The notes: a model not told the origin generated them from the letters alone. A DNA stretch of 64,000 bases from Patescibacteria group bacterium (GCA_038062955.1 JBBTWE010000001.1:320038-384037); one strand, 5' to 3'. Positions 8,627 through 63,961 are shown, numbered from the stretch's first letter. Numbers and translations: made by a program.

Positions 8627-9306
8627 ACCGAGGAACCTCTCGAGGTGCTAGACTTGTACGATTGGGGTCAAGGGTTACCAATCGGCACTCATTCGAGGAC
8701 TCCTCTCACACAGAACAGGGAATAAAGGGTGTTCAACCCTTTGATCCGTCTTCGCTCGCGGATCATGAGAATGCCGTCCACAGGTGTCGACAATGATCCT
8801 GTCGACTCATTCTCGCGATGCCGCTCGCTAGCCGGAATAAAAGCCGAGTCCTCAATCCATTCTCATGTGCGCCAGAACTTCTTCCTGTGAAGTCGTTGCC
8901 TACCATTCCACAGGTTGAGGAGAGCAAACAGACGAGGACTCGGATGTTCTTATTGAATGAAAGTGGTCCTTCCGAAGGGAAGCGACTCCAAAATGGCGGT
9001 ACTGGGGATTTCCCCCGGAAGGACAGTGTTCGGTGCTGTGCTGTATGTGAGAGAAAAAGAGCGAATCTGGGGAGTATTATAGATATCAGAGACCAAAAGT
9101 CAATGATTATAGCTGCCTGCCGGCAGGTATAAAAAAGGGGCCCCCATCTGCCGGTCAGAACAGAAGGGGGCCCACGAAACTTGATCCCGAGACCATATTA
9201 TGGAAAGGGCGGTTAGGGAGGGGGGTACTGGTCTCCATCACACAGCCACGGGATCTTCACCAAGAGCAGTCTGTTGAGTATTGTATACCTTAAAAAATAA
9301 AAGTCA
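8595..9306 (-). ncRNA. GC-rich island 1. This is a roughly 700-nt highly structured region with no ORF of 60 aa or longer and no SD on the transcribed (minus) strand. It is a candidate large structured ncRNA or a decayed cassette.
   Basis: The GC content is far above the flanks. Many long-range perfect stems are present (GGTCCTTCCG/CGGAAGGAC, GGGCCCCC/GGGGGCCC, GATCCCGAGACCA/TGGTCT..CGGGATC). It is bounded by the mrdA terminator and by its own terminator. It does not match RNase P, tmRNA or SRP signatures. Confidence 0.35.
8721..8844 (+). repeat. Modular GC-rich repeat, copy A. It consists of module 1 (aaagggtgttcaaccctttgatccgtcttcgctcgcggatcatgagaat), module 2 (ccgtccacaggtgtcgacaatgatcctgtcgac) and module 3 (cattctcgcgatgccgctcgctagccggaataaa).
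   Basis: It matches the copies at 13643..13768 (outer modules inverted, inner module in the same orientation) and 15036..15122 (lacking module 2). Confidence 0.7.
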
Positions 9307-9383: not shown

Positions 9384-9389
9384 CAAGTA

Positions 9390-9426: not shown

Positions 9427-9615
9427 AGGTCTCGAACAGCCCGAGACCACAAAATGTCCTTCTACCATGGTGATCACGAATCAGGAGGAGGAAGACCACC
9501 ACAGGAGGACAGAGCTGGGTACAGAAGAACGAACCTCTGATTATTATTCTAAACAATTGTTGAGAAAAGTCAAACCCCAAATCAGGTATTAGGGAAAAAT
9601 ACACAGGTACAGAGC

Positions 9616-11316: not shown

Positions 11317-11387
11317 ATAGATTTGTCGAAAATTTCTTATAACTTCGTTACTCGAAATCTTTCGACATGATTTTTAAAGTGTAAAAA

Positions 11388-11657: not shown

Positions 11658-11717
11658 GATTCAAGAAAAAATTTTAAAATACAGATTTCTAGAACTTTTA
11701 GATTTGGATACAGACCT

Positions 11718-11800
11718 AGGCGCAAGCGAGGAGCGAACCGAGACGTATTTGACAATACGTTGAGGGAGCACCGGAGCGAAGCAACGACGGTATGTGCCAA
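11718..11800. repeat. Intercistronic structured repeat, type A, copy 2 (ccgagACGTATttgacaATACGTtgagggag...cggagcgaagcaacg), located between mreC and mreD.
   Basis: Homologous to 1540..1625 and 20593..20682. Confidence 0.7.
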
Positions 11801-11814
11801 ATATATAAGTTCTT

Positions 11815-13642: not shown

Positions 13643-13768
13643 TTTTTATTCCGGCTAGCGAGCGACATCGCGAGAATGTACCGTCTACAGGTGTCGACAA
13701 TGACCCTGTCGACCTCATTCTCATGATGCGCGAACGAAGACGGATCAAAGGGGTTTAATACCCTTTAT
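13643..13768 (-). repeat. Modular GC-rich repeat, copy B. It forms the proS-mreB intercistronic leader and abuts the mreB ATG.
   Basis: It is the reverse complement of copy A in its outer modules (tttattccggctagcgagcg..., ...gacggatcaaaggggtttaataccctttatt), with the GTCGAC module retained in the plus orientation. Confidence 0.7.
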
Positions 13769-15010
13769 TATTTTGAGTGTCTCATTCAAATCCGTAATCT
13801 TAATTTCTCCGGACTTTCGGTTTTTTAATTCCAGTTTATTTTCTAGAAGCATCTTCTCGCTTATCACAACTCTCCATGGAATTCCGAGAAGGTCTGAATC
13901 AGATAATTTTTCCCCAGCGCTTACCTTTCTATCATCATGAAGCACTTCAAATCCATTACTTTCAAATTCTTTCAAAATCTTTAACGCTTCGGCAGTAACT
14001 TTCTCTCCTTTTCCAGCAATTTCAATCAGATGAATTCGGAACGGAGCAATTGATTCCGGCCAGACAATTCCCTTCCCGTCTGACAGAACTTCAACAACCG
14101 TACCCATAAGACGACTTGGGCCCATACCATAACAACCCATAATAACTGGCTTTTCTTTGCCTTTTTCATCAATATATTTAAGCCCCAGAGCATCTGAAAA
14201 ACGTGTGCCCAATGAGAAAATATTTCCTACTTCAATTGCTTTTTCTTCTTTAAGATCTTTTTTATTTAGCTTCAGATTTTCCAGCACTTCATCTGTATAA
14301 ACTTCTTTATTAACTGCTAGTTTCTTTTTTTCGTCTACATAAATAACATCTTCTCCGGCCGGAGTTACGGTTTGAAACTCATGGGAATATTTTGAAAATA
14401 TTCCACCAGAAGCAAAAGTCATAAATGTTGTAGCACCTAATCCCAATCTTTCAAATACATTCATGTAGGCAATTTTTGCACGTTCATAGAATTCTTCATG
14501 TTCTTTTTCATCTCGAGCAAAAGAATACATATCTTTCATTTGAAATTCACGGCCACGCATAATACCGCTCTTTGCGCGCACTTCATTTCTAAATTTTGTC
14601 TGAATTTGATAAATAGCTTTCGGTAAATCTTTGTAAGACCGAATATGATCTTTTAGAAGTCGAGTCAAAGGTTCTTCATGACTAAAACCAAGCCCCAACT
14701 TTCCTCCGTTTTTGAGCTCGGTCTTAAACCAGACGTCCACTTTCGCATCCTCCCATCTGTCAGTGGCACTCCACACTTCTTTATCCTGCAAAACTGTTAA
14801 AAGCATTTCTTGACCCCCGATCTTATTCATTTCTTCCCGAACAATGTCTTCAATTTTACGAAGAACAATAAGTCCCAAAGGTAAGAAATCATAAACGCCC
14901 GCGAGCTCTTTATTGATAAAACCACCACGGATTAAAAGCTCGGCATTTTTTGAGACCTCATCTTTTGGGGCCTCCTTTCTAGTTTTAGTGAAAAGATGGG
15001 ATTGTCTCAT
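13745..15010 (-). CDS. proS: Prolyl-tRNA synthetase (short form without an editing insertion)
   Basis: The class II motifs REFQMKDMYSF and GCYGMGPSR are present. The N-terminus aligns with ProRS (RGGFI..GVYDFLPLG..VLRKIEDIVREEM). A C-terminal anticodon-binding domain is present. Confidence 0.85.
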   Translation of the reverse strand: MRQSHLFTKTRKEAPKDEVSKNAELLIRGGFINKELAGVYDFLPLGLIVLRKIEDIVREEMNKIGGQEMLLTVLQDKEVWSATDRWEDAKVDVWFKTELKNGGKLGLGFSHEEPLTRLLKDHIRSYKDLPKAIYQIQTKFRNEVRAKSGIMRGREFQMKDMYSFARDEKEHEEFYERAKIAYMNVFERLGLGATTFMTFASGGIFSKYSHEFQTVTPAGEDVIYVDEKKKLAVNKEVYTDEVLENLKLNKKDLKEEKAIEVGNIFSLGTRFSDALGLKYIDEKGKEKPVIMGCYGMGPSRLMGTVVEVLSDGKGIVWPESIAPFRIHLIEIAGKGEKVTAEALKILKEFESNGFEVLHDDRKVSAGEKLSDSDLLGIPWRVVISEKMLLENKLELKNRKSGEIKITDLNETLKIIKGIKPL

Positions 15011-15035: not shown

Positions 15036-15122
15036 TGGTATTAACCCTTTGATCCGTCTTCGTTCGCGGATCATGAAAAAGAGTACTTTTTCGCGATTCC
15101 GCTCACTAGCCGGAATAAATAA
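15036..15122 (+). repeat. Modular GC-rich repeat, copy C (modules 1 and 3 only), in the rseP-proS intercistronic region.
   Basis: ggtattaaccctttgatccgtcttcgttcgcggatcatga ... cgattccgctcactagccggaataaa. Confidence 0.65.
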
Positions 15123-17599: not shown

Positions 17600-17732
17600 T
17601 ATTCTCTCTAAGGAAAGGTGGCGGTATTCGGCAACGTTCTTCAGTCGGAATCATCACCTACCCCAGGGCTCATGTGCACACACTCCTCCTTTGACTGCTG
17701 GTCTGCTTGGTGTGTGCGTGAGCCCTTTTTTT
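17600..17732 (+). ncRNA. Small GC-rich plus-strand transcript of island 2. It may encode a short peptide (GTG start at 17618) and ends at an intrinsic terminator.
   Basis: A promoter lies upstream. The terminator is gggctcatgtgcacacac...gtgtgtgcgtgagccc plus TTTTTTT. The segment shares caacgttc with the island-3 transcript. Confidence 0.4.
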
Positions 17733-17738
17733 ACCCCG

Positions 17739-17803
17739 TAGTGAATTTTGGCATTGTTACTTTTGCAATGGAGTTGTTATGCCAAAATCTACTACGGGGT
17801 TAT
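17739..17803 (+). repeat. Conserved 22-bp-stem hairpin element, copy 2. It sits directly after the island-2 terminator and overlaps the atpC stop codon.
   Basis: The arms are identical to copies 1 and 3. The loop, tgttacttttgcaatggagttgtt, is related to the copy-3 loop (TTGCAA core). Confidence 0.8.
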
Positions 17804-18033
17804 TTAATCAAAATAGTCACCTTATCCCCCGAAACTTCGGCGAAACCAGACTCAATAGGAAAATTGAGATTTTCCGCTTCATCTTTGATTTTAATATCTC
17901 CCTTTTTTAAAATTGTAATAAGAGGAATGTGATGATCGAGAATAGAAATCTCCCCTTCCCCTGCGGGGAGACTGACAACTTTTCCTGTGCCCTCATAGAG
18001 AGTTTTTTCAAGAGAATGAATTGATATTTTCAT
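17800..18033 (-). CDS. atpC: ATP synthase F1 epsilon subunit (short, N-terminal beta-sandwich only)
   Basis: A 77-aa protein in the last position of the atp operon. The GxxxxLPxG..ISIL..H pattern is present. Confidence 0.8.
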   Translation of the reverse strand: MKISIHSLEKTLYEGTGKVVSLPAGEGEISILDHHIPLITILKKGDIKIKDEAENLNFPIESGFAEVSGDKVTILIK

Positions 18034-18052: not shown

Positions 18053-18175
18053 TAGAACTTCCAGATTTGAGACAAGTTGTTTGATAAAACTGAGTACCGA
18101 AGCGAGACGTATGTACTTATACGGCGAAGCAAGGAACGGAAGTTTTAGCAAAGAAATTGGCCAAATGTGGAAGTT
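18053..18175. repeat. MITE-like 125-bp element, type B, copy 1, with terminal inverted repeats (TIRs, tagaacttcca / tggaagtt) and an internal CGTATgtacttATACG hairpin. It lies between atpD and atpC.
   Basis: About 90% identical to 26716..26843. Confidence 0.75.
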
Positions 18176-18179
18176 ATAA

Positions 18180-20540: not shown

Positions 20541-20592
20541 AATATTTGTAAACTTTGGGACTTAATAGAATTTAATTAATTTGGATGCAATT

Positions 20593-20682
20593 CGAGGCGC
20601 GAGTGAGAACCGTACCGAGACGTATTTAATAATACGTTGAGGGAGGCTCGGAGCGAAGCAACAAAGAAGTGCGCCGAATTAA
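20593..20682. repeat. Intercistronic structured repeat, type A, copy 3, between atpA and atpG.
   Basis: ggcgcgagtgagaaccgtaCCGAGacgtatttaataatacgttgagggaggCTCGGagcgaagcaac. Confidence 0.7.
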
Positions 20683-20688
20683 CAAATT

Positions 20689-22212
20689 CTATTTAAAATA
20701 TTTCTTGAAATCTGAAATAATCGTTTTAATCTTTTCATCAATCTTCGCTGTAATCTCGGCAGTCTCTCGAAGTTCTTTCAAGACCTCTGCATGTCTTTCA
20801 TTCATAAATTCTAAGAGTTTCTTTTCAAACAAAGAGACTGACGCAAGAGGCACGTCATCAATATAACCATTTACTCCGGCATATAGAGAAATAACCTGCT
20901 TTTCAAATGGCATACTCTCATATTGTGGCTGTTTCAATAATTCAACCAATCGTTGTCCACGATTAATCTTTTTTTGAGTTGCTTGATCGAGTTCCTGACC
21001 AAACTGCGCAAAAGCCGCAAGTTCTCTAAATTGGGCGAGTTCAAGCCTCAAAGTACCCGCAACTTTTTTCATAGCTTTTGTCTGGGCCGATGAACCGACA
21101 CGCGACACTGAAAGTCCGACGTTGATAGCTGGTCTTATTCCCTGATAGAAAAGTTCGGGTTCAAGATAAATTTGCCCGTCAGTAATGGAAATAACGTTTG
21201 TTGGCACATAAGCTGAAATATCTCCGAGTTGAGTTTCAATAATTGGGAGCGCAGTAAGAGATCCTCCTCCAAATTCTTTACTTAATCTCGCCGCTCTTTC
21301 AAGAAGTCTTGAGTGAAGATAGAAAATATCTCCAGGATAAGCTTCGCGGCCAGGAGGGCGTCGCAGAAGAAGAGAAACTTGTCTGTATGCCCAAGCGTGC
21401 TTCGAAAGATCATCGTAAATTACGAGAGCGTCCTTTCCTTTATCCATAAAATATTCACCGATAGCACATCCAGCATAAGGAGCTAAATATTGGAGGGACG
21501 CAGGAGAAGCGGCGCCAGCAACAACCACGACCGTGTAATCCATTGCTCCAGACTTTTTTAATTGTTCGACAATGTGAGCAACTTTTGATTCTTTTTGACC
21601 AATCGCAACATAAATACAGATCGGAGTGCCATTTCGAACATCATTTTTCTGATTGATGATTGTATCGATAACGATTGCGGTTTTTCCGGTCTGACGATCA
21701 CCAATAATAAGCTCACGCTGACCTCGGCCGATTGGAATCACCGCGTCAATTGCCTTAATACCAGTTTGAAGTGGCACTTTTACCGATTCTCTGGTTATAA
21801 CTCCTGGAGCAACTTTTTCGAGTGGATAGTGCTCAACTTTATTTTTATCAAATGCTTTTCCTCCATCAATTGGTTCGCCAAGTGGATTGATTACTCTACC
21901 CAAAAGTTCCGAGCCAACGGGAATCGAAAGAATGCGGCCGGTTCCCTTTACTCTCTGTCCTTCAATAACTTTGGTTGAATCTCCGAGAATAATCGCGCCG
22001 ATCGTGTCTTCTTCAAGGTTCAATGCAAGCCCGGTTACTTTTTCGCTTTCTTTTTCGTTTTCAAATTCCAAAATTTCAGAAGACTTTACTCCAGATAATC
22101 CTCGGATGATTGCGACCCCATCCCCCACGCGTAAAACTTCGCCGACATTGCTAACAGACGGACTGCCTTTAATGCCAGAAATTTCTTTTTTTAATTGTTG
22201 TAAAATATCCAT
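20689..22212 (-). CDS. atpA: ATP synthase F1 alpha subunit
   Basis: Walker A (GDRQTGKT) is present. Length is 507 aa. Confidence 0.95.
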
Positions 22213-25908: not shown

Positions 25909-26008
25909 CCCCCACAAGGTCTCGCAGACAAGTTCTGATCGAGGCCTTTCTTTTTTACTTTCAACACTATAACTTCCTGTCTGTCGGCAGGCAGGTACAC
26001 TTTTAACT

Positions 26009-26715: not shown

Positions 26716-26843
26716 GGTAGAACTTTCAGATTTGAGACAAGTTGTTTGATAAAACTGAGCACTGTAGCGAGACGTATTTAATAATACGGCGAGTGAAGAG
26801 CGGAAGTTTTAGCAAAGAAATTGGCCAAATATGGAAGTTCTAC
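26716..26843. repeat. MITE-like 125-bp element, type B, copy 2, between holB and mreB-2. Its right TIR overlaps the mreB-2 stop codon.
   Basis: ggtagaactttcagatttgagacaagttgtttgataaaactgag...gaagttttagcaaagaaattggccaaatatggaagttctac. Confidence 0.75.
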
Positions 26844-29651: not shown

Positions 29652-30077
29652 TCAGCTTCTGGCGCGTTCTCTTTCGAATGCCCAGTTCACCTTCGGCACT
29701 GCCGCACGAAAGAAGTCGTCGATCTTGACCTCAAAGTCAACGCCAACATCGTCGTAACCAGCTGGTGCAAGCTTGCGGATCAGTGGTCTTGCAACCTCCA
29801 GTTGAGATGTGCCAGCTGGTGCCACCCACACTTCACCCTCGCGAGTGACGATCGCGTCCACACAGACCCGAGCATCATCATCTTGATGATCTTGAAGAGT
29901 GAGAACCGCCTCGCATGAATGGCCGAGAAGATCCCCGAGCTGACTACCAACCCAGAAAGCATCCCCGACAGGACGATGGGGATAGAGTCCTGTGATGTTC
30001 ACGAAACCGACATCGCGCAGCTTACGCTGCATTCTACCCGAAAGTGTCATAGAAGAACTACCTTTAGTCCGAAACAC
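29652..30077 (-). CDS. Hypothetical protein, the cargo of GC-rich island 3. The likely start is the internal ATG at 30050 (aaagg SD).
   Basis: The ORF is GC-rich. It has its own promoter (TTGACA-16-TATACT) and terminator. Confidence 0.5.
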   Translation of the reverse strand: MFRTKGSSSMTLSGRMQRKLRDVGFVNITGLYPHRPVGDAFWVGSQLGDLLGHSCEAVLTLQDHQDDDARVCVDAIVTREGEVWVAPAGTSQLEVARPLIRKLAPAGYDDVGVDFEVKIDDFFRAAVPKVNWAFERERARS

Positions 30078-30205: not shown

Positions 30206-30420
30206 AGAAGCAGGTCGTCTAACGTAGCACAACGCCACAGGACGATCTGTGCCGAACAACGTTCGCAGGAGGACACATGCGCAAGATGAAGCTCTCCAGC
30301 TGATACGACAAGAAGTCGGCCCGTTGTGGAGAACCTTTGAGCCGAAAGAGAACTGTAGGCTCGATGGAACTTCTAACACTCACCCGTTGTGTCCCCCAAA
30401 GGACATGACGGGTGTTTTTT
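30206..30420 (+). ncRNA. Small GC-rich plus-strand transcript of island 3. It contains an SD plus an 8-codon ORF (AGGAGG-N5-ATG MRKMKLSS) and ends at an intrinsic terminator.
   Basis: The terminator is cacccgttgtgtcc..ggacatgacgggtg plus TTTTTT and lies immediately before hairpin copy 3. Confidence 0.4.
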
Positions 30421-30486
30421 ACCCCGTAGTGAATTTTGGCATCGTTGCCTTGCAACAGAGTTGCTATGCCAAAATCTACTACGGGG
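30420..30486 (+). repeat. Conserved 22-bp-stem hairpin element, copy 3, followed by T8.
   Basis: accccgtagtgaattttggcat-cgttgccttgcaacagagttgct-atgccaaaatctactacggggt. Confidence 0.8.
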
Positions 30487-30534
30487 TTTTTTTTGAATCT
30501 ATCACTCTACCTTTTCTAGTGGTACTATAGTGTC

Positions 30535-35317: not shown

Positions 35318-35484
35318 TACCCTTAAAGTGTTATTTGTCTTAATAATTAACTCAATTTTATTACCGCATTCCAGTACGAAGAATTCATAACCTGAAATTC
35401 CCTGTCTGCCGACAGGCAGGTACTACAGGATTCATGCCCACATTATATACCGTCTATGAATTTTACTACCCACAATTATCCACA

Positions 35485-45376: not shown

Positions 45377-45610
45377 CATAAATTTATTTCTTCTTTTTCT
45401 TTACCCCCCCTACCAAAAACGCCTTTGGTGTGGGAGTTTATATTACTCGTCTCCTCCAAAAAAGCGTTTAAGTCTGATTCTTTGATCCGCCAAACACCGA
45501 CATAAAATTGCTTTAAGGGTTGATACCATTTTACCCCTTCTTAAATTCATTGTCGAAATCGCCGTCTTTTGTCATAAAAGAAAAATGTCGGCTTTCATTG
45601 ATATTTGCCT

Positions 45611-45655
45611 CCGCGGGTAGCCTGCCTGCCGGCAGGGAGTTTCTCTCTCTACGAG
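45611..45655. repeat. A 45-bp element (ctccgcgggtagcctgcctgccggcagggagtttctctct), the left member of an inverted pair with 49219..49262.
   Basis: The reverse complement matches 49219..49262 except for a 4-nt indel. The core is the CTGCCGGCAG palindrome. Confidence 0.65.
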
Positions 45656-45980
45656 AGCAGTATAGGTTTCCCATTTTTTCGGATTTAACATCCTCAAAAA
45701 TATGGGAGAACCTTTTCGAATCCTACCTCGCAAGCAAAATTATTTGCTTGCTCGCGAGTAGGAATTTCTTTCATTACATGAACAGTATACCTTTTGGCTA
45801 AAATTTTCATCCTCGACAAACTTGGATTCAATTTTAGGCTCAAAAGCTTTTCGAATCCTAACGAAGGTGCTATTCAAAGCACCTTCTCCCGCAGAAGCCA
45901 CAAATGACAAAATCCACCGAAAAGGTGGATTTGTGTCAGTGGCTCCGCGGGTAGGATTCGAACCTACGACCAATCGCTTA

Positions 45981-46535
45981 CATTTGTTCCAAAGTTGCCT
46001 TTGGCATGGACTATATCATCATCCTTCATCGGCTGTTTGCAGATGGATGGGATGTGAGGCGCTTCGACTGAATTTTTCAGGCTACTCTCTTTCGAGATAG
46101 TCTCTGAACCTTCCTGCTGATTAGCAGGCTTGGCTGCTGATTGCCCACGTGGGGTTTCCAGCAATTCACCTCATTTTTCATCCTAAATTCCTTTAGGAAG
46201 CTGCGTGATGCCGTCATGTATTTCCATGTGACAATTTGCACAAACGAGTACGCACTTCTTAATTTCCTCTTCGATTTTGGCCCAGGAACGTGTTATGCCT
46301 CCAGAAGCAAGATCGAATTTCTTTGTAGATGGATCGATATGGTGGAAACTAAGAGATCGTTGGCATTTTTTGTAACCACATATAAAACATTTACTGCCTT
46401 TCGTTGCTCTAGCCATTTCACGAAGTTTTCTTCTTCTTCGTTTTACAGCTTCTCGCATGTACTCGGCACGGTCGGCATAGGTTCTTTTTTCTTTCCTGGT
46501 ATACATTAATAAAGTATACCACAGAACCTTCTGAC
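45981..46535 (-). mobile_element. Group I intron (within the anticodon loop of the tRNA) carrying an HNH homing-endonuclease ORF.
   Basis: P7 strands GACUA / UAGUC (cagAGACTAtc ... atATAGTCc), GNRA-capped hairpins (tctcGAAAgaga, ccaaagGCAActttgg), a terminal omega-G and the HNH ORF are all present. Confidence 0.7.
46183..46506 (-). CDS. HNH homing endonuclease (intron-encoded)
   Basis: CFICGYKKC...SFHHIDP...N...CANCHMEIH is the C-x2-C/HH/N/C-x2-C-H HNH signature. Confidence 0.8.
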   Translation of the reverse strand: MYTRKEKRTYADRAEYMREAVKRRRRKLREMARATKGSKCFICGYKKCQRSLSFHHIDPSTKKFDLASGGITRSWAKIEEEIKKCVLVCANCHMEIHDGITQLPKGI

Positions 46536-46645
46536 ACAGGCGACTGCGCTACCACTGCGCCACCGCGGAATATTTGTGGAGAACGAGTTTATAATATCAA
46601 AAAAGTCTTTAAAAGCAATGTGACCATGAAATAAAATTTATCGAA

Positions 46646-47707
46646 CTATCTGCAAGAGGTTCTTCCTCCATCCAAATCATATTCCATCTTCAACCAATCA
46701 AAGTTTAACTCATTTGCTTTGTTGCAAAATTCCTTTGATTGCAATTCATATTCTACTCCAAAAACTGCTTTGTTTTGTGCAATGAATGGTAAAAGAGTTT
46801 CGCATTCATCATATTCAAAACATTGTTCATTCAAAGCAAAATCAAAATAACCAACCAATTCAGGAATTTGCTCTAGATCATTTTTCAAACCAACAGTTAA
46901 TCCTCTTTTATGAGCTTCTTCTGCAAGCCATTTATTATAAGCCAATTGGTGTTGATAGGTTAAAGCAAATCCATTATTGTTCAAATAACCATCCACATTA
47001 TCTGGCTCAACACCATCGCACCCCTTTTTTACCGCTAAATCCAATCTGTTTTTCATAATCGGTGCAATCAAGTCAATTTTGGAAATATCAAGCCATTTCT
47101 CATCCTCCCATCCTTCAAGAGTTCTTCCCTTAACCTCATTTGGAAAATCATCCTCGTCGATTCTCCAATCTTCATAACTTCCAGCACTAAAATAGCAAAT
47201 AACCTTGATACCTTTATTTTGCAATGCATTTATTGCCTCTTTTGAATTATCAAATAAGTCCACATCGTACATGTCAACAACATAGTTTGGATTTAGTGTT
47301 CCCATCAATTGCCATTGCCACGATGTATTTGGATTTGGTTTCCACCAATTAGTATTTTCTAGACTTTCATTGCTTTTAGTAGTTTGTACTTCTTTGAGCT
47401 CTGGTTTGTTTACTTTTGTAGCCTCTATGTTTGAAATATTTTGTTCTGTTGCTTCGTTTATAGTTGTTTTAGATAGTTCTGTTTTTGGGGCCAAAGCAAT
47501 GGTTTCAGATTCTTCTGAATTTGTTGCAATATCTTCTGTTAGCTCAAAGTCTGTAGCTATGTTTGATAGTTGTACTGTGGTAGTTTCCGGAGTCCCCTCT
47601 ATTAATTTTTTCTTATCGTCTGTTTGTTTTATGTTAGCGAAAACGATTGTGCTAACCGCAGCGACGGCCAACACCAATAAAATAATTTTCAGAACTTTTC
47701 TTTTCAT
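46646..47707 (-). CDS. Secreted glycoside hydrolase family 114 (endo-alpha-1,4-polygalactosaminidase / PelA-like) protein
   Basis: A signal peptide is present. The motifs WQWQL, CYFSAGSYEDWR, GWEDEKWLDI and GCDGVEPDNVDGY are GH114 signatures. Confidence 0.75.
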   Translation of the reverse strand: MKRKVLKIILLVLAVAAVSTIVFANIKQTDDKKKLIEGTPETTTVQLSNIATDFELTEDIATNSEESETIALAPKTELSKTTINEATEQNISNIEATKVNKPELKEVQTTKSNESLENTNWWKPNPNTSWQWQLMGTLNPNYVVDMYDVDLFDNSKEAINALQNKGIKVICYFSAGSYEDWRIDEDDFPNEVKGRTLEGWEDEKWLDISKIDLIAPIMKNRLDLAVKKGCDGVEPDNVDGYLNNNGFALTYQHQLAYNKWLAEEAHKRGLTVGLKNDLEQIPELVGYFDFALNEQCFEYDECETLLPFIAQNKAVFGVEYELQSKEFCNKANELNFDWLKMEYDLDGGRTSCR

Positions 47708-47771
47708 TCTTTAATTATAGTACATCATTAGGATTTTTTAAATTAAACACATTAGTGGTAAAATATAGCTA

Positions 47772-49127
47772 ATGCGTCAAAACATCTTGTCGAAAAATAG
47801 GAAGGGGTTCTCACAAATTATTTTATTAGGCATCGTGGCTATACTTGTTTTAGTTGGGGCCGGCGGATTTTTGTTATTGCCTGAAAAAGAAAAGTCTATC
47901 CCCAATATTCCAATACAACCCTCCAATCCCCAAACACAGTCAGAATTAAAACTAACAGAAAACATCCAGCCAGCATCGCAAAATGTAGAAATCGTAAAAA
48001 ATGTTGATCGGGTGCCTAATACTGACAGTAGTGCGGTACAGATAGGCAAGAGATTTTCCAATGGAGCATGTGATGGGAGCGGGAAAAAGCTTATGACCAC
48101 TGCCCCAATGAATCCCGAGGATGTACAGATGATTTTGCCATACGGCACGATGGTGGGCGCTCATGTGATACCAACATCGCACCAGTATCTAGAACCATGG
48201 GATAGAGCTCTAGGTCGGGATAAATATGAAGTGCGAGCGGCAATGGACGCAACCCTCTATTCGATTAGCAGAAGAGCCCAAAACGTCGAATCGGGTGAAG
48301 CGCGGCCAGAAGAATTTCAACTTTGGTTTGCCATCACATGTACGCACTTTTATTATTATGATTTGATGACGAGTCTCTCTCCAGAGCTCCAGAAGATTTT
48401 TGATGAAGAAAAGCGTCAAGATGATTATGCTTATGTACATATTCCAGTGAAAGCTGGACAAGTGGTGGGAAAGATAGGAGCGCAGACATTGGATTATGGT
48501 GTTTGGGATACGGAGCTACCGCCCACTACAGGCATCCTGGTGCCCGAGCACTATCAGTGGGACAGCTTTCGTGTTTATCTTGCTGACCCGCTTAACTACT
48601 ATACCGATGAGTTGAAAAAGATCATGCTGTCAAAATATGTCCGAACGGCCGAACCAATTTCGGGCAAAGTCGATTATGATATCGACGGAAAACTGATCGG
48701 TGGATGGTTTCTGGAAGGCACAGGGAATCTGACAGGAGGAAATTTCCAAAAGTATTGGGCTGGGCATCTGGCCATAGCGCCCGAATATCTCGATCCCAGT
48801 GTTTATTTGATTTCGGTTGGAGACTTCGCGGGTGAAGAGAAACAATTCTCGATACCCAGAAACGCTCCCGATCCAAAAAGTGTCGGGGTAGAGACGGGAC
48901 TAGTCAAATATGATCTGTTACCATGGCAATATTTGAAATCGGACGGAACGATTTGGGATTGGAAGAAATATGCAAAAGGATTGAAAATTGTGAATGGGCA
49001 TCAGAACTTTGGGTGCGTCGCTATCCAGATGATAGAGTCTCGCAAACTAAAATTTGAGGGCTTTAAAGGTAAAAGCTGTGCCAGTGTTAGCGGATTTACT
49101 AGCGCGGCTAAGATTTATGAACGCTAA
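47772..49127 (+). CDS. Hypothetical secreted/membrane-anchored protein (451 aa)
   Basis: An N-terminal TM/signal segment is present. No recognised domain. Confidence 0.5.
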   Translation: MRQNILSKNRKGFSQIILLGIVAILVLVGAGGFLLLPEKEKSIPNIPIQPSNPQTQSELKLTENIQPASQNVEIVKNVDRVPNTDSSAVQIGKRFSNGACDGSGKKLMTTAPMNPEDVQMILPYGTMVGAHVIPTSHQYLEPWDRALGRDKYEVRAAMDATLYSISRRAQNVESGEARPEEFQLWFAITCTHFYYYDLMTSLSPELQKIFDEEKRQDDYAYVHIPVKAGQVVGKIGAQTLDYGVWDTELPPTTGILVPEHYQWDSFRVYLADPLNYYTDELKKIMLSKYVRTAEPISGKVDYDIDGKLIGGWFLEGTGNLTGGNFQKYWAGHLAIAPEYLDPSVYLISVGDFAGEEKQFSIPRNAPDPKSVGVETGLVKYDLLPWQYLKSDGTIWDWKKYAKGLKIVNGHQNFGCVAIQMIESRKLKFEGFKGKSCASVSGFTSAAKIYER

Positions 49128-49218
49128 GGTCACTTTCTTTTTTCTCAAGATGTCAATACTACTTTGAGAAACTTCTTTTGAAAAAATGGGAAATCTATAC
49201 TGTTCTCGTAGAGAGAAA

Positions 49219-49262
49219 CTCCCTGCCTGCCGGCAGGCAGGCTACCCGCGGAGTCTACAAAC
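49219..49262. repeat. A 45-bp element, the right member of the inverted pair with 45611..45655.
   Basis: agagaaactccctgcctgccggcaggcaggctacccgcggag. Confidence 0.65.
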
Positions 49263-57381: not shown

Positions 57382-57533
57382 AAGAGACTCCTTTTTGTTG
57401 GTTAGTTTAAATGAACAGTTCTGGCGAAAGATTAGCCGAAAAACACTCTGAAATCAAACCTATTTTTATCCTTGCTTAAATTACCACCAAGGAGTATAAA
57501 AAGACTGGCAACAATGCTCTTTAAAAAGGAAAC

Positions 57534-57797
57534 TTGAATATGACGGAACAAAGTCCGAGTTGGGACGACCGTACGAACATTGAGTTGGTTGAGGGTGAAA
57601 TCTTTCCCGGCTTCCCGTTTAATGAGGGTGGCCCACGCAATCTGGGAACTTCATGTGAATTGATTCTCCTCGACGGTGGCAGAGTAATTGCTCGTCATCG
57701 AGCAGGACAATGGACCACTCAAAGCGGAAGAATCGTCTCCGTAGACGTAGTTGCCGCTTGGAAGACCGTCGACACCGAACATTTCAGAGGGGCCTAA
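57534..57797 (+). CDS. Hypothetical GC-rich islet protein (87 aa)
   Basis: The promoter is TTGCTT-17-TATAAA at 57468..57496. The SD is aaaaggaaa. The terminator is gaccc..gggtc plus T8 at 57822..57880. Confidence 0.45.
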   Translation: MNMTEQSPSWDDRTNIELVEGEIFPGFPFNEGGPRNLGTSCELILLDGGRVIARHRAGQWTTQSGRIVSVDVVAAWKTVDTEHFRGA

Positions 57798-57963
57798 TCA
57801 TGTTTGTTCTTCACCCCATATCACGACCCTTAGCTTGCTCGTCGCAACTTTGGGTCTTTTTTTTGTTTACAGGTCTAATTTTTTTAGAAAAACTTCATTC
57901 TCACATACTTGAGAATGTGAGAATGATATTTAGGCAAAGATTAAATTTAATACGGAGAAAAAA

Positions 57964-58509
57964 TTAGACTTCTTTATACATCGAAACTTCGTCAATATAT
58001 TCTCCTTTGTAGAAAATAGCTTTTGGTAAAATTCCCCATTCTTTAAATCCAACTTTTTTGTACAAATTTATTGCGTTTGGATTATTAGCGAAGACTTCGA
58101 GCTTGATAATTTTAAGATTAGGAATAGATTTTTTAGCTTCGCTTATCACATTTTCTATAAATATTTTACCCACACCTTCTCCCCTCGATTCTTTTGCAAC
58201 CGAAATCCCCAGTCCACCCACATGTGAAAGGACTCTATTTTTCATATCTACAGAAGACATACCAGTGAACTTACCATTGCAGAGAGCAACCAAAGTAACT
58301 CCCATCTTTTTTGACATCACTTCTAGGCAGGATTTTACAAACTTTTCTTCATCTTCCAGTTTTAATTGTTCGCCCTGAAAAGTTATAAATGTCTGCTCTT
58401 GAGATAAAGTATTTATGTAATCCAATGCCGCTTGTGCATCATTCGCTTCAATATATCTGATTACCAAGTCATTTCCCTTTTTTGTTTTGCCTTCAAATAC
58501 GATTTTCAT
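57964..58509 (-). CDS. GNAT-family N-acetyltransferase
   Basis: The acetyl-CoA binding motif RGEGVGKIFIENVISEAKK and FANNPNAINLYKKVGF are present. Confidence 0.8.
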   Translation of the reverse strand: MKIVFEGKTKKGNDLVIRYIEANDAQAALDYINTLSQEQTFITFQGEQLKLEDEEKFVKSCLEVMSKKMGVTLVALCNGKFTGMSSVDMKNRVLSHVGGLGISVAKESRGEGVGKIFIENVISEAKKSIPNLKIIKLEVFANNPNAINLYKKVGFKEWGILPKAIFYKGEYIDEVSMYKEV

Positions 58510-58573
58510 AATTATAATCTTACCTTATCTATATATAGTATGTTAACATTGCTGTCAGATTTCCTAAACCAAA

Positions 58574-58759
58574 CGAGGAAAAAGTGAAACAAGAAAAGCC
58601 AGTGGAAAGAACTCCCGAGCAACAAGAAGCGGAAAAAGCTTTTCGCAAAGCTGGGTACTCACAGGAAGACCCGGTTTGCGATCACTCGGGGTACGAGTTC
58701 AAAAAGCACGGCCGTTGTTGTCCCACATGCTCTACGTTCATGATGAGTTTTGGCGACTA
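58574..58759 (+). CDS. Small Cys-rich (zinc-ribbon-like) GC-rich islet protein, 61 aa from a GTG start
   Basis: The SD is aggaaaaa-GTG. The Cys pattern is C..(17)..CC..C. The terminator is ccgccacgcaataagatgctggcgg plus T6 at 58773..58815. Confidence 0.4.
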
Positions 58760-58836
58760 AAACCGAACCCATCTCGCTCACCCGCCACGCAATAAGATGC
58801 TGGCGGTTTTTTATACCCAAGTAAGTTGACAGAATA

Positions 58837-59346
58837 ATGGATAAGTATTATTGTCATCTCCAGATAGTTCCCAAAAAACCCTACGTAAGGCAAGTTATGG
58901 TCGCGTCCAGAATCATCGTCACGTCAAAGTCTGGTCTGCAAGTTTTCAGTGCGATATTCCACACACCTGTTGCTCCAGAAGAATTTCATATGGATCCGAC
59001 GGAGTTCTACTTAGAGTGGGGGAAATCAATCCCAGCGATTCCTCATCACGAGATCGAGATAACAAGTCCAGAAGACAACTTCCTCCGACAACACGGACTT
59101 CATATCCATGCGTCGAGAAAGACGGGCAAACCTTTTATCTGCTATCCAAAGAGGATGGAGACAACGAGTGAGGCTCTGCGTGTTTTCCGTACGTGGTGTC
59201 TCGGGTCGGTAGCCACGATTGTGGAAGAGATCGATCTCAACACAATCCATTCGCAAGAATGTGGTGGGGATGCAGAAAAGATGGAAAGAGTGTTGCACGA
59301 ACGATACGGAATCTTCGTGGCGACTCAAGTTGTGTCAGTGCAGTAA
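58837..59346 (+). CDS. Hypothetical GC-rich islet protein. The likely start is the ATG at about 58887, since the promoter -10 overlaps the first ATG.
   Basis: The promoter is TTGACA-17-TATTGT. The terminator is gcccgg..ccgggc plus T5 at 59360..59400. Confidence 0.45.
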   Translation: MDKYYCHLQIVPKKPYVRQVMVASRIIVTSKSGLQVFSAIFHTPVAPEEFHMDPTEFYLEWGKSIPAIPHHEIEITSPEDNFLRQHGLHIHASRKTGKPFICYPKRMETTSEALRVFRTWCLGSVATIVEEIDLNTIHSQECGGDAEKMERVLHERYGIFVATQVVSVQ

Positions 59347-59463
59347 TCTAGCAGAACTTTCGCCACGAGCCCGGTTTCACTACCCGGGCTTTTTATATAA
59401 AAACTTTCCAACTCCACTATCGAAAGATATAATAGGACTTGATCAATTAATTTAATACGAACA

Positions 59464-59874
59464 ATGAGAAAAATTACTAGAGAACAAGCGGTGAATTTTA
59501 CACTTTTATTACTTCGGATTGCGGCGGCAGTTATTTTTATTCAAGCGGGAGGCCTAAAACTATTTGGTTGGTTTGGCGGAATGCCAGCTGAAGTTCCAAT
59601 GAACACCCTAATATATATCGCTGGAATTCTAGAAGTTTTCGGGGGCTTGATGATTCTTTTTGGAATCTTTACTCGATCAGTTGCCTTTATACTTTCTGGT
59701 GAAATGGCAGTCGCATATTTTATGGGTCACTTCCCTAGCGGTTTCTGGCCAATTCAGAATCACGGTGAAGCCGCATTTCTTCTCTGTTTTATCTTCCTAT
59801 TTATAGCATCTTATGGCGCTGGCAGATGGAGTTTGGATTCTTGGAAGACAAACAGAAAACTAAAAACTTTATAG
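59464..59874 (+). CDS. DoxX-family membrane protein
   Basis: Four TM helices are present. The LLLRIAAAVIFIQAGGLKLFGWFGG N-terminus matches the DoxX pattern. Confidence 0.75.
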   Translation: MRKITREQAVNFTLLLLRIAAAVIFIQAGGLKLFGWFGGMPAEVPMNTLIYIAGILEVFGGLMILFGIFTRSVAFILSGEMAVAYFMGHFPSGFWPIQNHGEAAFLLCFIFLFIASYGAGRWSLDSWKTNRKLKTL

Positions 59875-59995
59875 CCTGCAGAAATAGGAAAAACTCCGGC
59901 ATACGCTGGAGTTTTTTCTTGTTGACTTCATTAGTGCGGAGTAGTATCTTCGTATTAGAAACAGTTCCACTTCCTCAAACAAGCAGAGAAAAAAG

Positions 59996-60358
59996 ATGGC
60001 ACGAGATGTCGAGGTGTTGAGCCCCAAGGCTCTTGCGATTTTCGAGAAGCTTCAGCCGTACTTCCCTCCCGATCCTTGGAAAAACCCCCAATGGACACCA
60101 GAAGGTATCGTCACAAACAACGGCCAGTACGATTTGCGGAAAAACGCTGACCGCAAACGTCTGGAAGCATGGGAGAAGTCCATGATCGGTTATTTGGTGG
60201 AAATTCAGGCGAGCATGTACAGAGACAAACACTCTGGATCACTTGACGGTTTCACCAACGTAACGTTCCCAAGAACAATCCAACGCCATGCCGAGATACT
60301 CCTCATTGTGACAGACCTCGATTTCCAGATCGAGACCGGAGATATCGTTGGAGACTGA
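59996..60358 (+). CDS. Hypothetical GC-rich islet protein (120 aa)
   Basis: The promoter is TTGACT-17-TATCTT at 59923..59951. The terminator is acacaacacg..cgtgttgt plus T7 at 60380..60412. Confidence 0.45.
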   Translation: MARDVEVLSPKALAIFEKLQPYFPPDPWKNPQWTPEGIVTNNGQYDLRKNADRKRLEAWEKSMIGYLVEIQASMYRDKHSGSLDGFTNVTFPRTIQRHAEILLIVTDLDFQIETGDIVGD

Positions 60359-60406
60359 ACAGAGCATGATCCAACGCACACAACACGATACCCTCGTGTT
60401 GTTTTT

Positions 60407-60976
60407 TTATTTAGAATTAAATTCTTTTATCTCTTTTAAAGCCTCTGGGAGTTCGGTAAATCCATCATCTTTTGTGAAGTGTCCGGCATTATGCAAAACA
60501 ACAATTTTTGAACCTAATTCAGAAAATTTCTTTTTATTTTCTTCAAAAGCGCCATACGGATCGTTGTCTGAAATTATCAGTGTAGATTTTGGAAGCACTT
60601 TTTTGACTTTGATTAAATCTATCGAAGATTCGATCCAGGGCTTTGCTATATTTTTTGTGTCCGTGTCTTCGAGATTTTCTAGGTTAAACCAACCAGCAAC
60701 AAATATTGCCCCAGCCACAGGAATCTTGATTGTTTCCAGATAACGAAGAATTGTTTGACATCCGATACTGTGACCAATAAAAAATGTGTCAGAATCGGGC
60801 ATACCGACAACCTCCTGAAGCTTCCCTACCCACTTTTGAATTTCGGGGGCATCACTATCTGGCATTTCAGGAACCAAAACTTCGAATCCTATTTTTTCCA
60901 ACTCTAGTTTAAGCCACGGACGCCAATCGTCTTTTGATCCTCCCGCCCAACGATGAACTATAATTATTCTTTTCAT
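60407..60976 (-). CDS. Alpha/beta-hydrolase, YdeN/RBBP9-like serine hydrolase
   Basis: IVHRWAGGS, the GHSIGC nucleophile elbow (GxSxG) and the C-terminal NAGHF are present. Confidence 0.7.
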   Translation of the reverse strand: MKRIIIVHRWAGGSKDDWRPWLKLELEKIGFEVLVPEMPDSDAPEIQKWVGKLQEVVGMPDSDTFFIGHSIGCQTILRYLETIKIPVAGAIFVAGWFNLENLEDTDTKNIAKPWIESSIDLIKVKKVLPKSTLIISDNDPYGAFEENKKKFSELGSKIVVLHNAGHFTKDDGFTELPEALKEIKEFNSK

Positions 60977-61261
60977 GTTTGTTTAGCTGTATTTTACAAC
61001 TTTTGGCGTAAAAAGTCATAATTCAAGCCAACAAAGTTAGAAATTTGATCTAAATTAAAAAATCTTAAATCTTAAATCCTATATCTTAAATCTCATTTGG
61101 GGGTTGACTTTTATGTGGATATAGATTAAGCTTGTAGCACAAAAGTTAATCGTCTCAAGTAAAGTCGATTTAGAGCATTATATTTTTGTACTTATTAGGT
61201 TAAGCACAGGTTTTCCAAAAATCGCATTATATGCGACCAAGGAAGGCCTAAAAGCAATTTC

Positions 61262-61576: not shown

Positions 61577-62473
61577 ATGCCTCAAATCAATTTCAAAGAT
61601 AGTCGCTTCGTGTCATGGACACTAGGAATAGCTCTTGTGCTTTTTATTTTTGGATTTATTTTTACACTGGTGAGTTTCACGAAATTTAAAAACAGCACCA
61701 AAATTGCAATTGAAGGATACGAAAGTAAAATAAAAGGACTCGAAGCAACACTTACAGAAACTACTATCGAGAAAACAGCTTTGGCCGAGCAATTAGATGC
61801 CGAACAAAGAAAGAACGCGGATTTCGAAGAACAAATAAGCGAAATCGAAGGAACTATTGGAGACCTTGAAAAGTTAAGCAAAACAGACCCAGAACTTTTG
61901 AATAAATATTCCAAAGTATATTTTTTAAATGAAAATTATATTCCGAGTGGCATAGTTCAAATACCTTCCGCTTACACCCAGAATGACAGCAAAGATTATT
62001 GGCTTCATAAGCAAATCTGGCCGTTTCTAGAGAAAATGATAAAGGCGGCAAAGGCAGACAGAATTGATCTCGAGATTATTTCCGGATACCGCTCTTTCGA
62101 TGAACAAGTGGAAGTAAAATCTGGCCATGTTGTCGTCTATGGCGCCGGCACTGCAAATCAATTCTCCGCAGAACAGGGATATTCAGAACACCAACTCGGC
62201 ACAACGGTTGATTTGACTACCAAAGAACTCGGGATAAACTACGAACAAATTGAAACTACAAAGGCCTACGAGTGGTTACAGAAGAACGCTTACAAGTACG
62301 GATTCATTCTCTCCTATCCAGAGGGCAACACTTACTACCAATTCGAGCCATGGCACTGGCGCTTCGTTGGAATTAAATTGGCTAAAGATTTAAACGATGA
62401 TGGAAAGTATTTCTACGATTTGAGTCAGAGAGAGATTGATGCATACCTCATAAACTTCTTCGACAAACGATAG
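61577..62473 (+). CDS. Membrane-anchored D-Ala-D-Ala carboxypeptidase (VanY / peptidase M15B family)
   Basis: SGYRSFDEQ, HQLGTTVDL and EPWHWRF are the zinc-ligand motifs of M15B. Confidence 0.8.
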   Translation: MPQINFKDSRFVSWTLGIALVLFIFGFIFTLVSFTKFKNSTKIAIEGYESKIKGLEATLTETTIEKTALAEQLDAEQRKNADFEEQISEIEGTIGDLEKLSKTDPELLNKYSKVYFLNENYIPSGIVQIPSAYTQNDSKDYWLHKQIWPFLEKMIKAAKADRIDLEIISGYRSFDEQVEVKSGHVVVYGAGTANQFSAEQGYSEHQLGTTVDLTTKELGINYEQIETTKAYEWLQKNAYKYGFILSYPEGNTYYQFEPWHWRFVGIKLAKDLNDDGKYFYDLSQREIDAYLINFFDKR

Positions 62474-62658
62474 TCGCCGAGAAATTTTGGAGAATTTCTT
62501 TGTTGTAACAATTTTTTTCTCCTGCACAGTATTAGTTATACAGCTTAGTACGAAAAAAATCGTTACGCCTCGAACTTCTCTCAAAATATCTCAGCTTGTA
62601 AATTCTCGAGAAAATTTTGTGTAAAAAGAAAGGGCGACCATGGCTGTTGCCTTGGTCG

Positions 62659-63255
62659 CCCGTCTACAGGTGTCGACGCCTAACCCGTCGACCCCTCGTT
62701 GTTTGTTCTCACTGATTCGTGAATCACTCTCGTGAGTCTGATGGAGATCTCCAATCCCAATCACCCGGACCGAAATGAAAATCCCACTTCTGTTCCTTCT
62801 GATTCCACCGCAGTTTTGGTAGCCGCTTACCATTCACCATCGTTGATACTTGTCCTGGGAACGCGATTGTTCCTGGTATGGACAGATCAGGCTGTTCCTC
62901 CATCAGTTTGAGCATTTCTGCAGACCCAGCCGAACGACAACGCCACAACTTCATCAGCAACCTGTACCGCCTCATCGTCATGGGGACAGGAAGGCAGAAA
63001 CAGAGGAGCGCGCCGAGCTTCGTGGGACGATAGGCCTTCTGCCGCAACACCTTGCCGAGGAGATACGCCTTGAGCACCCAAAGCACATCGAGGACGAATC
63101 CGCGCACGGCACTGACACGATCACCGAACGAAAGGTTCTTGTTCTTCACGGTCTGTTCTCCTATCGAGGTTGAATTTCTGTTTTTGTGACTTAGCGAAAT
63201 TGCTTTGCCACAGCAGGAGACGGGTCGACGGGTTGGGCGTCGACACCTGTAGACG
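62659..63255. mobile_element. MITE/IS-like GC-rich element of about 600 bp, bounded by 35-bp near-perfect terminal inverted repeats (ccgtctacaggtgtcgacgcc[t/c]aacccgtcgaccc). It contains one GTG-start ORF.
   Basis: The TIRs are at 62659..62693 and 63221..63255 (34 of 35 positions match). The same GTCGAC-N9-GTCGAC motif occurs in the modular repeat copies A and B. Hairpins flank each TIR. Confidence 0.6.
62724..63149 (-). CDS. Hypothetical protein inside the TIR-bounded element (GTG start with a taggaga SD)
   Basis: ORF track plus the SD. The protein is Arg/Trp-rich. Coding status is uncertain. Confidence 0.3.
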   Translation of the reverse strand: MKNKNLSFGDRVSAVRGFVLDVLWVLKAYLLGKVLRQKAYRPTKLGALLCFCLPVPMTMRRYRLLMKLWRCRSAGSAEMLKLMEEQPDLSIPGTIAFPGQVSTMVNGKRLPKLRWNQKEQKWDFHFGPGDWDWRSPSDSRE

Positions 63256-63466
63256 GCCCTCCTCCTGCTGTGGCAAAAACGTTGTAAATCAGTGAGTTTT
63301 TAATGAACAATTTTCTGTGTCCAGTATACACCCATTCGTGTATTTTGTCAAGCACAAATTGTATATAACAAATAGACGGCTAGGAACAAGGGTGTTTTAA
63401 TACATAGGCCGAGCCTATGTATGATGATTTTATTCTTGAATCGTGAATCATAAATCTTGAATCTGA

Positions 63467-63961
63467 CTATTGCGTTTTTCTGCAATAGTCATGCATCACA
63501 ATCCCCGCGGCGACGGCGACGTTTAGAGAGCGGACGGAGCCGAGTTGGGTGATTTCCACAGTGTGATGACATCTTTTTAGAACTTCTTCGGGTATTCCAC
63601 TAGCTTCCTGACCAAACACTAGAAGAGTTTTTTTATTTTTGTCCCATTTGAAATCCTGAAGTGGAATTGCCTCTTTATTATTTTCAAGCGCAACCGCCAC
63701 ATCATATTCAGAAAAAATCACGTCCAAATCATCAACGTATTTAATATGGCGAAAATGAGAATAGAATTCGGTACCCACAGACGCTCGCCTATCAAACTTC
63801 TTATGACCGTAGAGAATAATTTCTTTAGCGCCGAAAGCATTGGCCGATCTCACAATATTGCCCGCATTGTTGTCGTATAAAATATTAACAAGCAAGATTC
63901 CGTAATTGAGTTTCTTTTCGTTCAAATATTTAATTGTTTCTTCATCGGTTAACCATTTCAA
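63467..63961 (-). CDS. SpoU/TrmH-family (SPOUT) RNA 2'-O-methyltransferase, TrmL-sized
   Basis: LLVFGQEASGIPEEVL and SLNVAVAAGIV are the SPOUT motifs. Length is 164 aa. Confidence 0.8.
   Translation of the reverse strand: MKWLTDEETIKYLNEKKLNYGILLVNILYDNNAGNIVRSANAFGAKEIILYGHKKFDRRASVGTEFYSHFRHIKYVDDLDVIFSEYDVAVALENNKEAIPLQDFKWDKNKKTLLVFGQEASGIPEEVLKRCHHTVEITQLGSVRSLNVAVAAGIVMHDYCRKTQ

Follow-up and report, generated by a model that had tools for sequence, protein, structure and literature searches.

When a pair of long inverted repeats encloses a small gene, is it the enclosed block that moves, or the repeats themselves? The question is raised by a locus on a 704-kb contig (GCA_964363395.1) of a Patescibacteria (CPR) MAG obtained from Hainich groundwater. 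A repeat search of the 64-kb window – the whole stretch of DNA analysed here – places two 38-nt arms at 62660-62697 and 63219-63256; they are complementary at 36 of 38 positions (95%), are spaced 521 nt apart, and fall within the 994-bp spacer that separates two convergent genes, one for a VanY/M15 peptidase and one for a SpoU methylase. The 21-nt exact core of the arms, CCGTCTACAGGTGTCGACGCC, was found 0.00 times per 100 dinucleotide-preserving shuffles of the window.

The first-pass annotation of this DNA had drawn terminal inverted repeats (TIRs) at 62659-62693 and 63221-63255, matching at 34 of 35 positions. These repeats are real, and lie within a few bases of the arms given above. Its description of the element as GC-rich holds as well (G+C is 0.49-0.57 across the element versus ~0.35 on both sides, in 200-nt windows), and it was correct that there is no transposase inside. 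The reuse of a GTCGAC module, which it had also remarked upon, is borne out by the occurrence of GTCGAC-N9-GTCGAC at 8786, 13693, 62672 and 63224, against a chance expectation of 0.79. From these features it read the locus as a non-autonomous transposon or cassette. We think it probable that the locus is something else: a small acquired gene, both ends of which are decorated by REP-like mobile hairpin units that are not the movers of the gene. The features on which the argument turns are as follows.

61577-62473, plus strand: VanY/M15 peptidase gene, flanking
62623..62661, minus strand: terminator-like hairpin (62661-62632) plus UUUCUUUUU; -25.2 kcal/mol, z = -6.8; overlaps c3 by 2 nt
62660..62692, plus strand: left 33-nt hairpin unit, c3, reading CCGTCTACAGGT + GTCGACG / CCTAACC / CGTCGAC; the arm reaches 62697; covariance model 55.1 bits, E = 3.5e-17
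62724..63149, minus strand: 141-aa gene (ORF141) with a GTG start; member of a rare unannotated family with the motif D.LWVLQAYLRGKVLRQKAYRP...R..L.KWWG.RP.T..E...vP.l.W.
63162-63157, minus strand: Shine-Dalgarno sequence AGGAGA, 7 nt upstream of the GTG
63204..63277, minus strand: 5′-UTR hairpin with a perfect 16-bp stem (63204-63219 / 63262-63277) and c4 in its loop
63224..63256, minus strand: right 33-nt hairpin unit, c4, 32/33 identical to c3; the arm starts at 63219; covariance model 53.5 bits, E = 1.2e-16
63323..63351, minus strand: sigma-70-type promoter-like site TTGACA-17-TATACT (11/12; a consensus match only), reading into the hairpin and the gene
from 63467, minus strand: SpoU methylase gene, flanking

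The 33-nt hairpin unit and its mobility

At the heart of each arm is a 33-nt unit with the layout CCGTCYACAGGT-GTCGACN-(7 nt)-N'GTCGAC, that is, a conserved 12-nt 5′ tail and then a 7-bp stem that encloses a loop of 7 nt. When each position of the window is scored with a covariance model, exactly four copies emerge: c3 and c4 at the locus, and two solo units, c1 and c2, listed below. The loop subfamily GCCYAACCC is common to c3 and c4, which still agree at four of five bases beyond the unit ends; the loops of c1 and c2 read AATGAYCCT.

The unit is not confined to this genome. An exact-pattern scan of 185,579 species genomes located 22 further loci, nearly all of them labelled as CPR (Taylorbacteria, Nomurabacteria, Paceibacterota, Parcubacteria and Saccharibacteria), with two carrying generic 'bacterium' titles only; resting as it does on exact patterns and one genome per species, this census is a lower bound that is biased to conserved copies. 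The same kind of scan found the unit absent from the viral contigs of IMG/VR. At least nine copies are present in the fetched parts of one Taylorbacteria MAG, and four in the 64 kb here. No protein family recurs among the genes that neighbour the units at these loci.

Evidence that the unit acts as a folded structure came from a search anchored on 11 nt of the tail alone, which recovered 36 copies. All of these have seven of seven stem pairs, with a loop of 7 nt in every copy but one (8 nt), even where the arms differ, as in GCCGACC/GGTCGGC, GCCGATG/CATCGGC and GTCGATG/CATCGAC. Across 25 different variants pairing holds in all 175 cells (100%), three pairs show changes on both sides, the closing stem pair is seen as AU, GC, UA and CG, and the covariation score of the stem is matched by 0 of 500 shuffles. 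Such pairing, together with the compensatory changes, indicates that the structure is selected on a single strand, be it DNA or RNA. Tail and stem are almost base-for-base constant across MAGs labelled as different CPR lineages. The loops are genome-specific: they are not tied to particular sites, and are common to unrelated sites within one genome. Unit copies therefore descend from one another rather than from their target sites. Five of the six reading frames are open through the unit, the length of which is a multiple of three (33 = 11 x 3).

Pairs of filled and empty sites provide the most direct record of movement, the clearest being found in the window itself.

8774..8806, plus strand: solo unit c1, within the loop of H, a palindromic element of ~100 nt
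13681..13713, plus strand: solo unit c2, within the loop of an H copy that is inverted; same absolute orientation as c1
15043..15122, plus strand: H copy without a unit, the empty counterpart of c1 and c2; central hairpin loop of 4 nt

The H element is intergenic, begins with a terminator-like AAAGGGT..ACCCTTT hairpin, and is present in three copies (8720-8842, 13642-13775 and 15043-15122) and in both orientations. In the copy at 13642-13775 the additional DNA comprises 33 nt, located exactly within the 4-nt loop position. In the copy at 8720-8842 the unit occupies the same loop apex, with one of the four loop bases kept, in the opposite orientation relative to H – a consequence of c1 and c2 sharing absolute orientation while the H copy that holds c2 is inverted. 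A comparable set exists in a Taylorbacteria MAG, where a shared repeat context is empty at two loci (L008 and L018) and filled at two others (L005 and L025), to within one base. Units have also entered genes: an otherwise intact SufS gene (L016) carries one in frame, adding exactly 11 residues in an alignment with the solved SufS 5j8q, and a second in-frame unit lies in a 530-aa ORF (L022).

These observations show that the unit is a discrete, dispersed and structured sequence that acts as mobile DNA. The mechanism of mobilisation is one that we infer: units would spread as folded single-stranded DNA, mobilised in trans by an enzyme encoded elsewhere, as has been proposed for REPs. Flanking sequence of the units (60 nt) is more stably folded than that of junctions chosen at random in the same loci (mean MFE -15.0 versus -9.1 +/- 0.9 kcal/mol). 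Junctions within a terminal loop closed by a stem of at least 5 bp number 5 against 3.1 expected, which is not a significant excess.

Several units sit within hairpins that match the published CGTC-1 REP type, from which it follows that CPR genomes also carry classical CGTC REPs. Hairpins of this type are seen in L006 (~2700-2790), L019 (~6600-6680 and ~6970-7050) and L026 (~7280-7360), where the order is cGTCATTCCCGCGAAGG, the unit, then CGGGAATCCAG. Four MAGs, labelled Nomurabacteria (one), Paceibacterota (two) and Saccharibacteria (one), have the unit within ~150 nt of conserved sequence that comes just after a tRNA gene and its terminator (L011 6480-6790, L013 5885-6200, L017 7610-7940 and L021 3680-3924); in L011 and L013 at least, this context includes partial copies of the T-arm and 3′ end of that tRNA. 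It may be a novel small RNA or the remnant of an attachment site; ARAGORN finds no tmRNA there.

Four other interpretations of the unit were considered and set aside. That it forms part of a tmRNA was suggested by flanks of the form UCGAnnGGG ... UUUGCGAAAC in four genomes; ARAGORN detected no tmRNA with or without the unit, and Rfam none in L013. A CRISPR or TIGR-like array is ruled out: copies occur singly and at scattered places, and what would be the 'spacer' between two of those in L005 is a repeated sequence in its own right. The 9-nt spacer is not a copy of a target site, given that spacers are genome-specific across different sites. Finally, the pair at 8774-13713 does not mark the ends of a 4.9-kb element: the interval contains mreB, mreC and PBP2.

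The gene between the arms

The first-pass annotation had called the interior ORF questionable, a doubt that does not survive: homologues exist, and the family is conserved. An exhaustive phmmer search of 1.84e9 representatives returned 40 hits at E <= 1e-3 (about 40 clusters), and a profile built from this family gathered 44 proteins; a word-indexed protein search missed the family, so that only exhaustive phmmer recovered homologues. Those with names all bear the title 'hypothetical protein'; two of these come from CPR, and another is labelled Terrimicrobiaceae. The ORF has no match in Pfam, PHROGs, NCBIfam or PADLOC, and the family is absent from IMG/VR. An alignment of the family reveals invariant W, G, Y, R and W residues along with the motif LWVLQAYLRGKVLRQKAYRP, and the N-terminus here, MKNK, is the same as that in L035. 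Across 13 loci the entropy at third codon positions is 1.20, versus 0.69 and 0.54 at the other positions (~twofold), which indicates that selection acts on the ORF141 protein. The interior ORF is thus shown, on the evidence of aligned homologues, to be a real gene under protein-level selection. Residues 1-85 of an AlphaFold model have pLDDT > 90; no known fold was matched. A candidate paralogue at 29652-30077 proved unrelated.

The gene was probably acquired horizontally, and is G+C-rich. Its codon usage is foreign to this genome (GC3 0.61 versus 0.34 in host genes), and in 14 of 14 metagenome loci the G+C of the family member lies above that of the surrounding locus. The exact 141-aa protein was found at this locus only. 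Neighbours of the family vary by locus – one context includes three large serine recombinases, another an IS30-type transposase – and no conserved neighbour gene emerged across the loci examined.

The gene also has candidate expression signals of its own. Together the promoter-like site, the 5′-UTR hairpin, the 141-aa gene and the terminator-like hairpin would make up one small acquired transcription unit between the VanY-like and SpoU genes. The hairpin at 62632-62661 reads as a terminator because UUUCUUUUU comes next on the minus strand. At the other end the 5′-UTR hairpin and the c4 that it contains form a composite fold of -47.1 kcal/mol (z = -7.0). In the predicted transcript c4 would appear in sense close to the 5′ end, and c3 in complement close to the 3′ end; the 38 complementary bases of the two UTRs could, on modelling, pair as a 38-bp duplex, which forms part of the minimum-energy fold calculated for the full transcript.

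Whether the block moves as a whole

A critical issue is the history of the two units that flank the gene. The 16-bp stem around c4 has one arm inside and one arm outside the TIR-to-TIR span, and thus the hairpin straddles the boundary of the supposed block. DNA on either side must therefore have been contiguous before c4 arrived, as at H; and a unit that entered pre-existing contiguous DNA is not the terminus of a block. On the left, c3 abuts the foot of the terminator hairpin, which stays intact without c3 because the next bases are CCC. The earlier statement that each TIR is embedded in a local hairpin accordingly holds for the right arm, with its perfect 16-bp stem, and fails for the left, where the hairpin at 62632-62661 only abuts the arm (2-nt overlap). 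Under the explanation that we favour, c3 and c4 would have come separately from the gene, or after it, attracted to its two terminal hairpins; their inverted arrangement would be a by-product of entry into the terminal hairpins of a gene cassette that was already present, or that was acquired with them.

Some observations count against this explanation. The likeness of c3 and c4 – 32 of 33 bases, a common loop subfamily and four of five further bases – could be a sign that they share an origin or were transferred together. Furthermore, head-to-head units around a gene of ~140 aa reproduce the geometry of REPtrons and TIRtrons, a point to which we return below.

The strongest competitor is movement of the block at 62660-63256 as a whole, mobilised in trans through its inverted units in the manner of the TIRs of a MITE. 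To its credit, the TIR is long and near-perfect, with a common loop subfamily and a 5-nt extension in the arms; the enclosed gene is G+C-rich, is foreign in codon usage and belongs to a patchy family that is sometimes found beside recombinases or IS elements; and the region is missing from a syntenic relative, L048, which shares with this genome the gene order DHO_dh - CSD - VanY - SpoU - bPH_2 - TruB (VanY is 71% identical at the amino-acid level). The flanking genes are 49 bp apart in L048 and 994 bp apart here. The first-pass annotation had proposed that relatives be compared for empty sites, and this relative does lack the region; the extra DNA amounts to ~945 bp, as against 597 bp for the TIR-to-TIR block. 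L048 provides the only empty site, and is a distant relative in which intergenic DNA is unalignable; for this reason the order of events that we favour, gene first and units later, is one that we infer rather than observe. Between the DHO_dh and cold-shock genes the same comparison (57400-61200 versus L048 4380-4677) reveals ~3.9 kb of further extra DNA, with genes for an acetyltransferase, DoxX and Ser_hydrolase as well as G+C-rich ORFans; the neighbourhood as a whole is variable.

Other expectations of whole-block movement find no echo in the data. There is no target-site duplication: the flanks, which read ...TTGGTCGC on the left and CCCTCCTCC... on the right, share no direct repeat of the kind that the first-pass annotation had suggested might lie just outside the TIRs. 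No second copy of the 600-bp block was found in the window or in any fetched locus, a search that took in ~70 kb of this 704-kb genome. Elsewhere in the window the arm recurs as solo 33-nt units, two in number, which flank the housekeeping mreB-mreC-PBP2 operon. The search that it proposed for an autonomous partner bearing the TIRs drew a blank as well, the 185,579 species genomes giving solo or tandem units only. Among 13 homologues of the gene elsewhere, none has a unit within +/-5 kb or convincing TIRs. To these must be added the position of c4, in a hairpin that straddles the block boundary, which would be an unlikely coincidence if the whole block had been inserted.

Comparison with MITEs leads to the same place. 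The element resembles them in its length of ~600 bp, its terminal inverted repeats, its want of a transposase and its absence from the syntenic relative; unlike MITEs it has no TSD, is single-copy, contains a conserved gene with its own expression signals, and has one TIR in a hairpin that crosses the boundary. Of five defining features of MITEs only the terminal inverted repeats are present, the element failing in the other four. We therefore regard movement of the whole block as unlikely. The first-pass interpretation is partly supported: it was right in spirit, for the arms are a mobile type of repeat and the region, missing in L048, is variable, but wrong in kind, a MITE being for the most part not what is present.

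A second alternative takes the REPtron-like geometry at face value and proposes that the 141-aa protein, a non-HUH protein with a new fold, recognises or moves the 33-nt units, an analogue of a RAYT flanked by its own repeats. As in REPtrons and TIRtrons (PMC3733652), a small gene lies between inverted copies of a repeat that also has solo copies elsewhere; in the protein family the Tyr of QKAYRP is invariant, the N-terminal helix is basic and the fold resembles none that is known; and no other enzyme for the units was identified. But the products of REPtrons and TIRtrons are Y1 HUH tyrosine transposases (RAYT or TIRYT), whereas the 141-aa product has no HUH motif, no similarity to Y1_Tnp and no structural match to TnpA or to any other fold. 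Gene and unit, moreover, do not travel together: 0 of the 13 homologues in other genomes are flanked by the repeat, none of the 22 unit-bearing loci has an ORF141 homologue, and the family, with about 40 clusters in 1.84e9 representatives, is very rare. We consider this reading very improbable.

Equally hard to sustain is an inverton, in which a recombinase flips the 521-bp segment, so that the gene is switched on or off with respect to the promoter at 63351-63323, which lies outside it. The segment is indeed short and lies between near-perfect inverted repeats, with a promoter-like site just outside directed into the gene. Against this, contigs from five Hainich assemblies all have the same gene order; the four contigs that were aligned, one of which stops within the left unit, are 100% identical over the stretches they have in common. 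The called genes of the 64-kb window include no recombinase domain. At other sites the units occur singly, or flank essential genes in direct orientation, and inversion does not explain insertions in frame or into hairpin loops.

Least probable of all is a structured ncRNA – 600 G+C-rich nucleotides closed by a 38-bp terminal helix, with the ORF incidental – which a G+C-rich island in an A+T-rich genome, the presence of a promoter and terminator, and a whole-transcript fold of z = -5.1 might suggest, but which is largely refuted by the codon-position pattern, homologues being conserved in amino-acid sequence while their third positions vary freely. In addition, the TIR itself supplies much of the z-score, and Rfam offers no family for the element across the whole window at the gathering threshold and nothing beyond hairpin noise at E <= 10 in 62400-63500.

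Relation to known repeats and significance

The closest known kind of sequence is the tagged REP. Di Nocera et al. (2013, PMC3733652) described tagged REPs as palindromes of small size that bear an unpaired GTAG or CGTC tag at one terminus and occur as singles, head-to-head dimers and arrays, and sometimes in frame in genes, Rickettsia RPE-4 and RPE-6 being examples. Likewise, the unit falls in the range of 20-40 nt, is palindromic and dispersed, and has a conserved unpaired tag at one end, here starting CCGTC. Units are mostly intergenic, downstream of or between genes, and are found as singles, head-to-head pairs and head-to-tail arrays; there are occasional in-frame insertions in known genes, and genome-specific subfamilies. 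The resemblance is closest to CGTC REPs, which are without a dedicated transposase (PMC3733652): every unit begins (C/T)CGTC, and no dedicated transposase adjoins it.

There are nonetheless differences. CGTC families 1-4 have an 8-9-bp stem that starts AT right after the tag, a 4-5-nt loop and a CCA tail (PMC3733652), whereas the unit has 7 nt between the tag and a 7-bp stem of sequence GYCGAYN, a 7-nt loop and no conserved 3′ tail. Its tag is not a tetranucleotide at the foot of the stem but a 12-nt invariant tail that stands apart from it. Unlike those of tagged REPs, its tail and stem are nearly identical in MAGs labelled as different CPR lineages, and in other CPR genomes it is nested inside CGTC-1-like REPs. 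Finally, REPs in general number tens to hundreds per genome, while the copy number of the unit may be lower, with four in the 64 kb here and at least nine in the fetched parts of one Taylorbacteria MAG.

In REPINs and in IS200/IS605-type ends what is recognised is a folded single-stranded hairpin along with an adjacent conserved single-stranded segment, and insertions take place without duplication. By analogy, recognition of the unit is probably also through a single-stranded hairpin and the conserved segment beside it. The parallel has limits: the arms of a REPIN are tens of bases apart, whereas those containing c3 and c4 are 521 apart; and, unlike the case for IS200/IS605 ends, no Y1 transposase or RAYT homologue was detected in 472 kb of unit-associated sequence with the queries used.

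Further repeats are present in the window. A G+C-rich intergenic palindrome, CCTGCCTGCCGGCAGGCAGG, constitutes a second REP-like family, with copies at 9115-9135, 25971-25998, 35396-35423 and 49217-49244, and a family of long hairpins, ACCCCGTAGTGAATTTTGGCAT ... ATGCCAAAATCTACTACGGGGT (with GTAG within), has three copies (9301-9388, 17727-17805 and 30415-30492). Inverted repeats of 72 nt (45609-45680 / 49180-49253, 86-95% complementary) bracket 3.5 kb in which Rfam gives a hit to a group I intron (minus strand, 45988-46271, 78 bits); no host tRNA or rRNA was detected for it. The same 3.5 kb contains a GH114 gene and an ORF of 451 aa that is rich in G+C and has no match in Pfam, and 45609-49253 may be a real TIR-bounded or invertible segment. 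Between minus-strand genes, 8590-9540 comprises ~950 nt of G+C-rich, ORF-free and visibly structured DNA with no Rfam match and a minus-strand terminator near 8590-8625, and could hold one or more novel RNAs. Lastly, blocks of ~120 nt at 1526-1646, 11703-11823 and 20580-20700, and also at 18053-18178 and 26718-26842, have GTATGTACTTATACGGTGAGGGAGGC in common and lie upstream of minus-strand genes; they may represent a common leader or promoter module.

Both the 33-nt hairpin family of CPR and the ORF141 orphan family appear to be undescribed; the literature that we searched contains no description of REP-like repeats in CPR/Patescibacteria, nor of the unit sequence. ORF141 defines a family that is well delimited and always G+C-rich, and is a candidate for an accessory or mobile function. 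Were the REPtron-like reading true, it would mean a new class of enzyme for single-stranded hairpin DNA, and an ultra-small element conserved across CPR lineages. In CPR MAGs the unit, as described by covariance model R1, can serve to mark intergenic structure and breaks in assembly, and to flag 'TIR elements' that are spurious. The combination of a near-invariant tail and stem, genome-specific loops and a covarying stem implies a protein partner that is conserved or horizontally shared among organisms with tiny genomes, and the units themselves, including the one in frame within SufS, indicate that even the tiny genomes of CPR tolerate selfish hairpin DNA.
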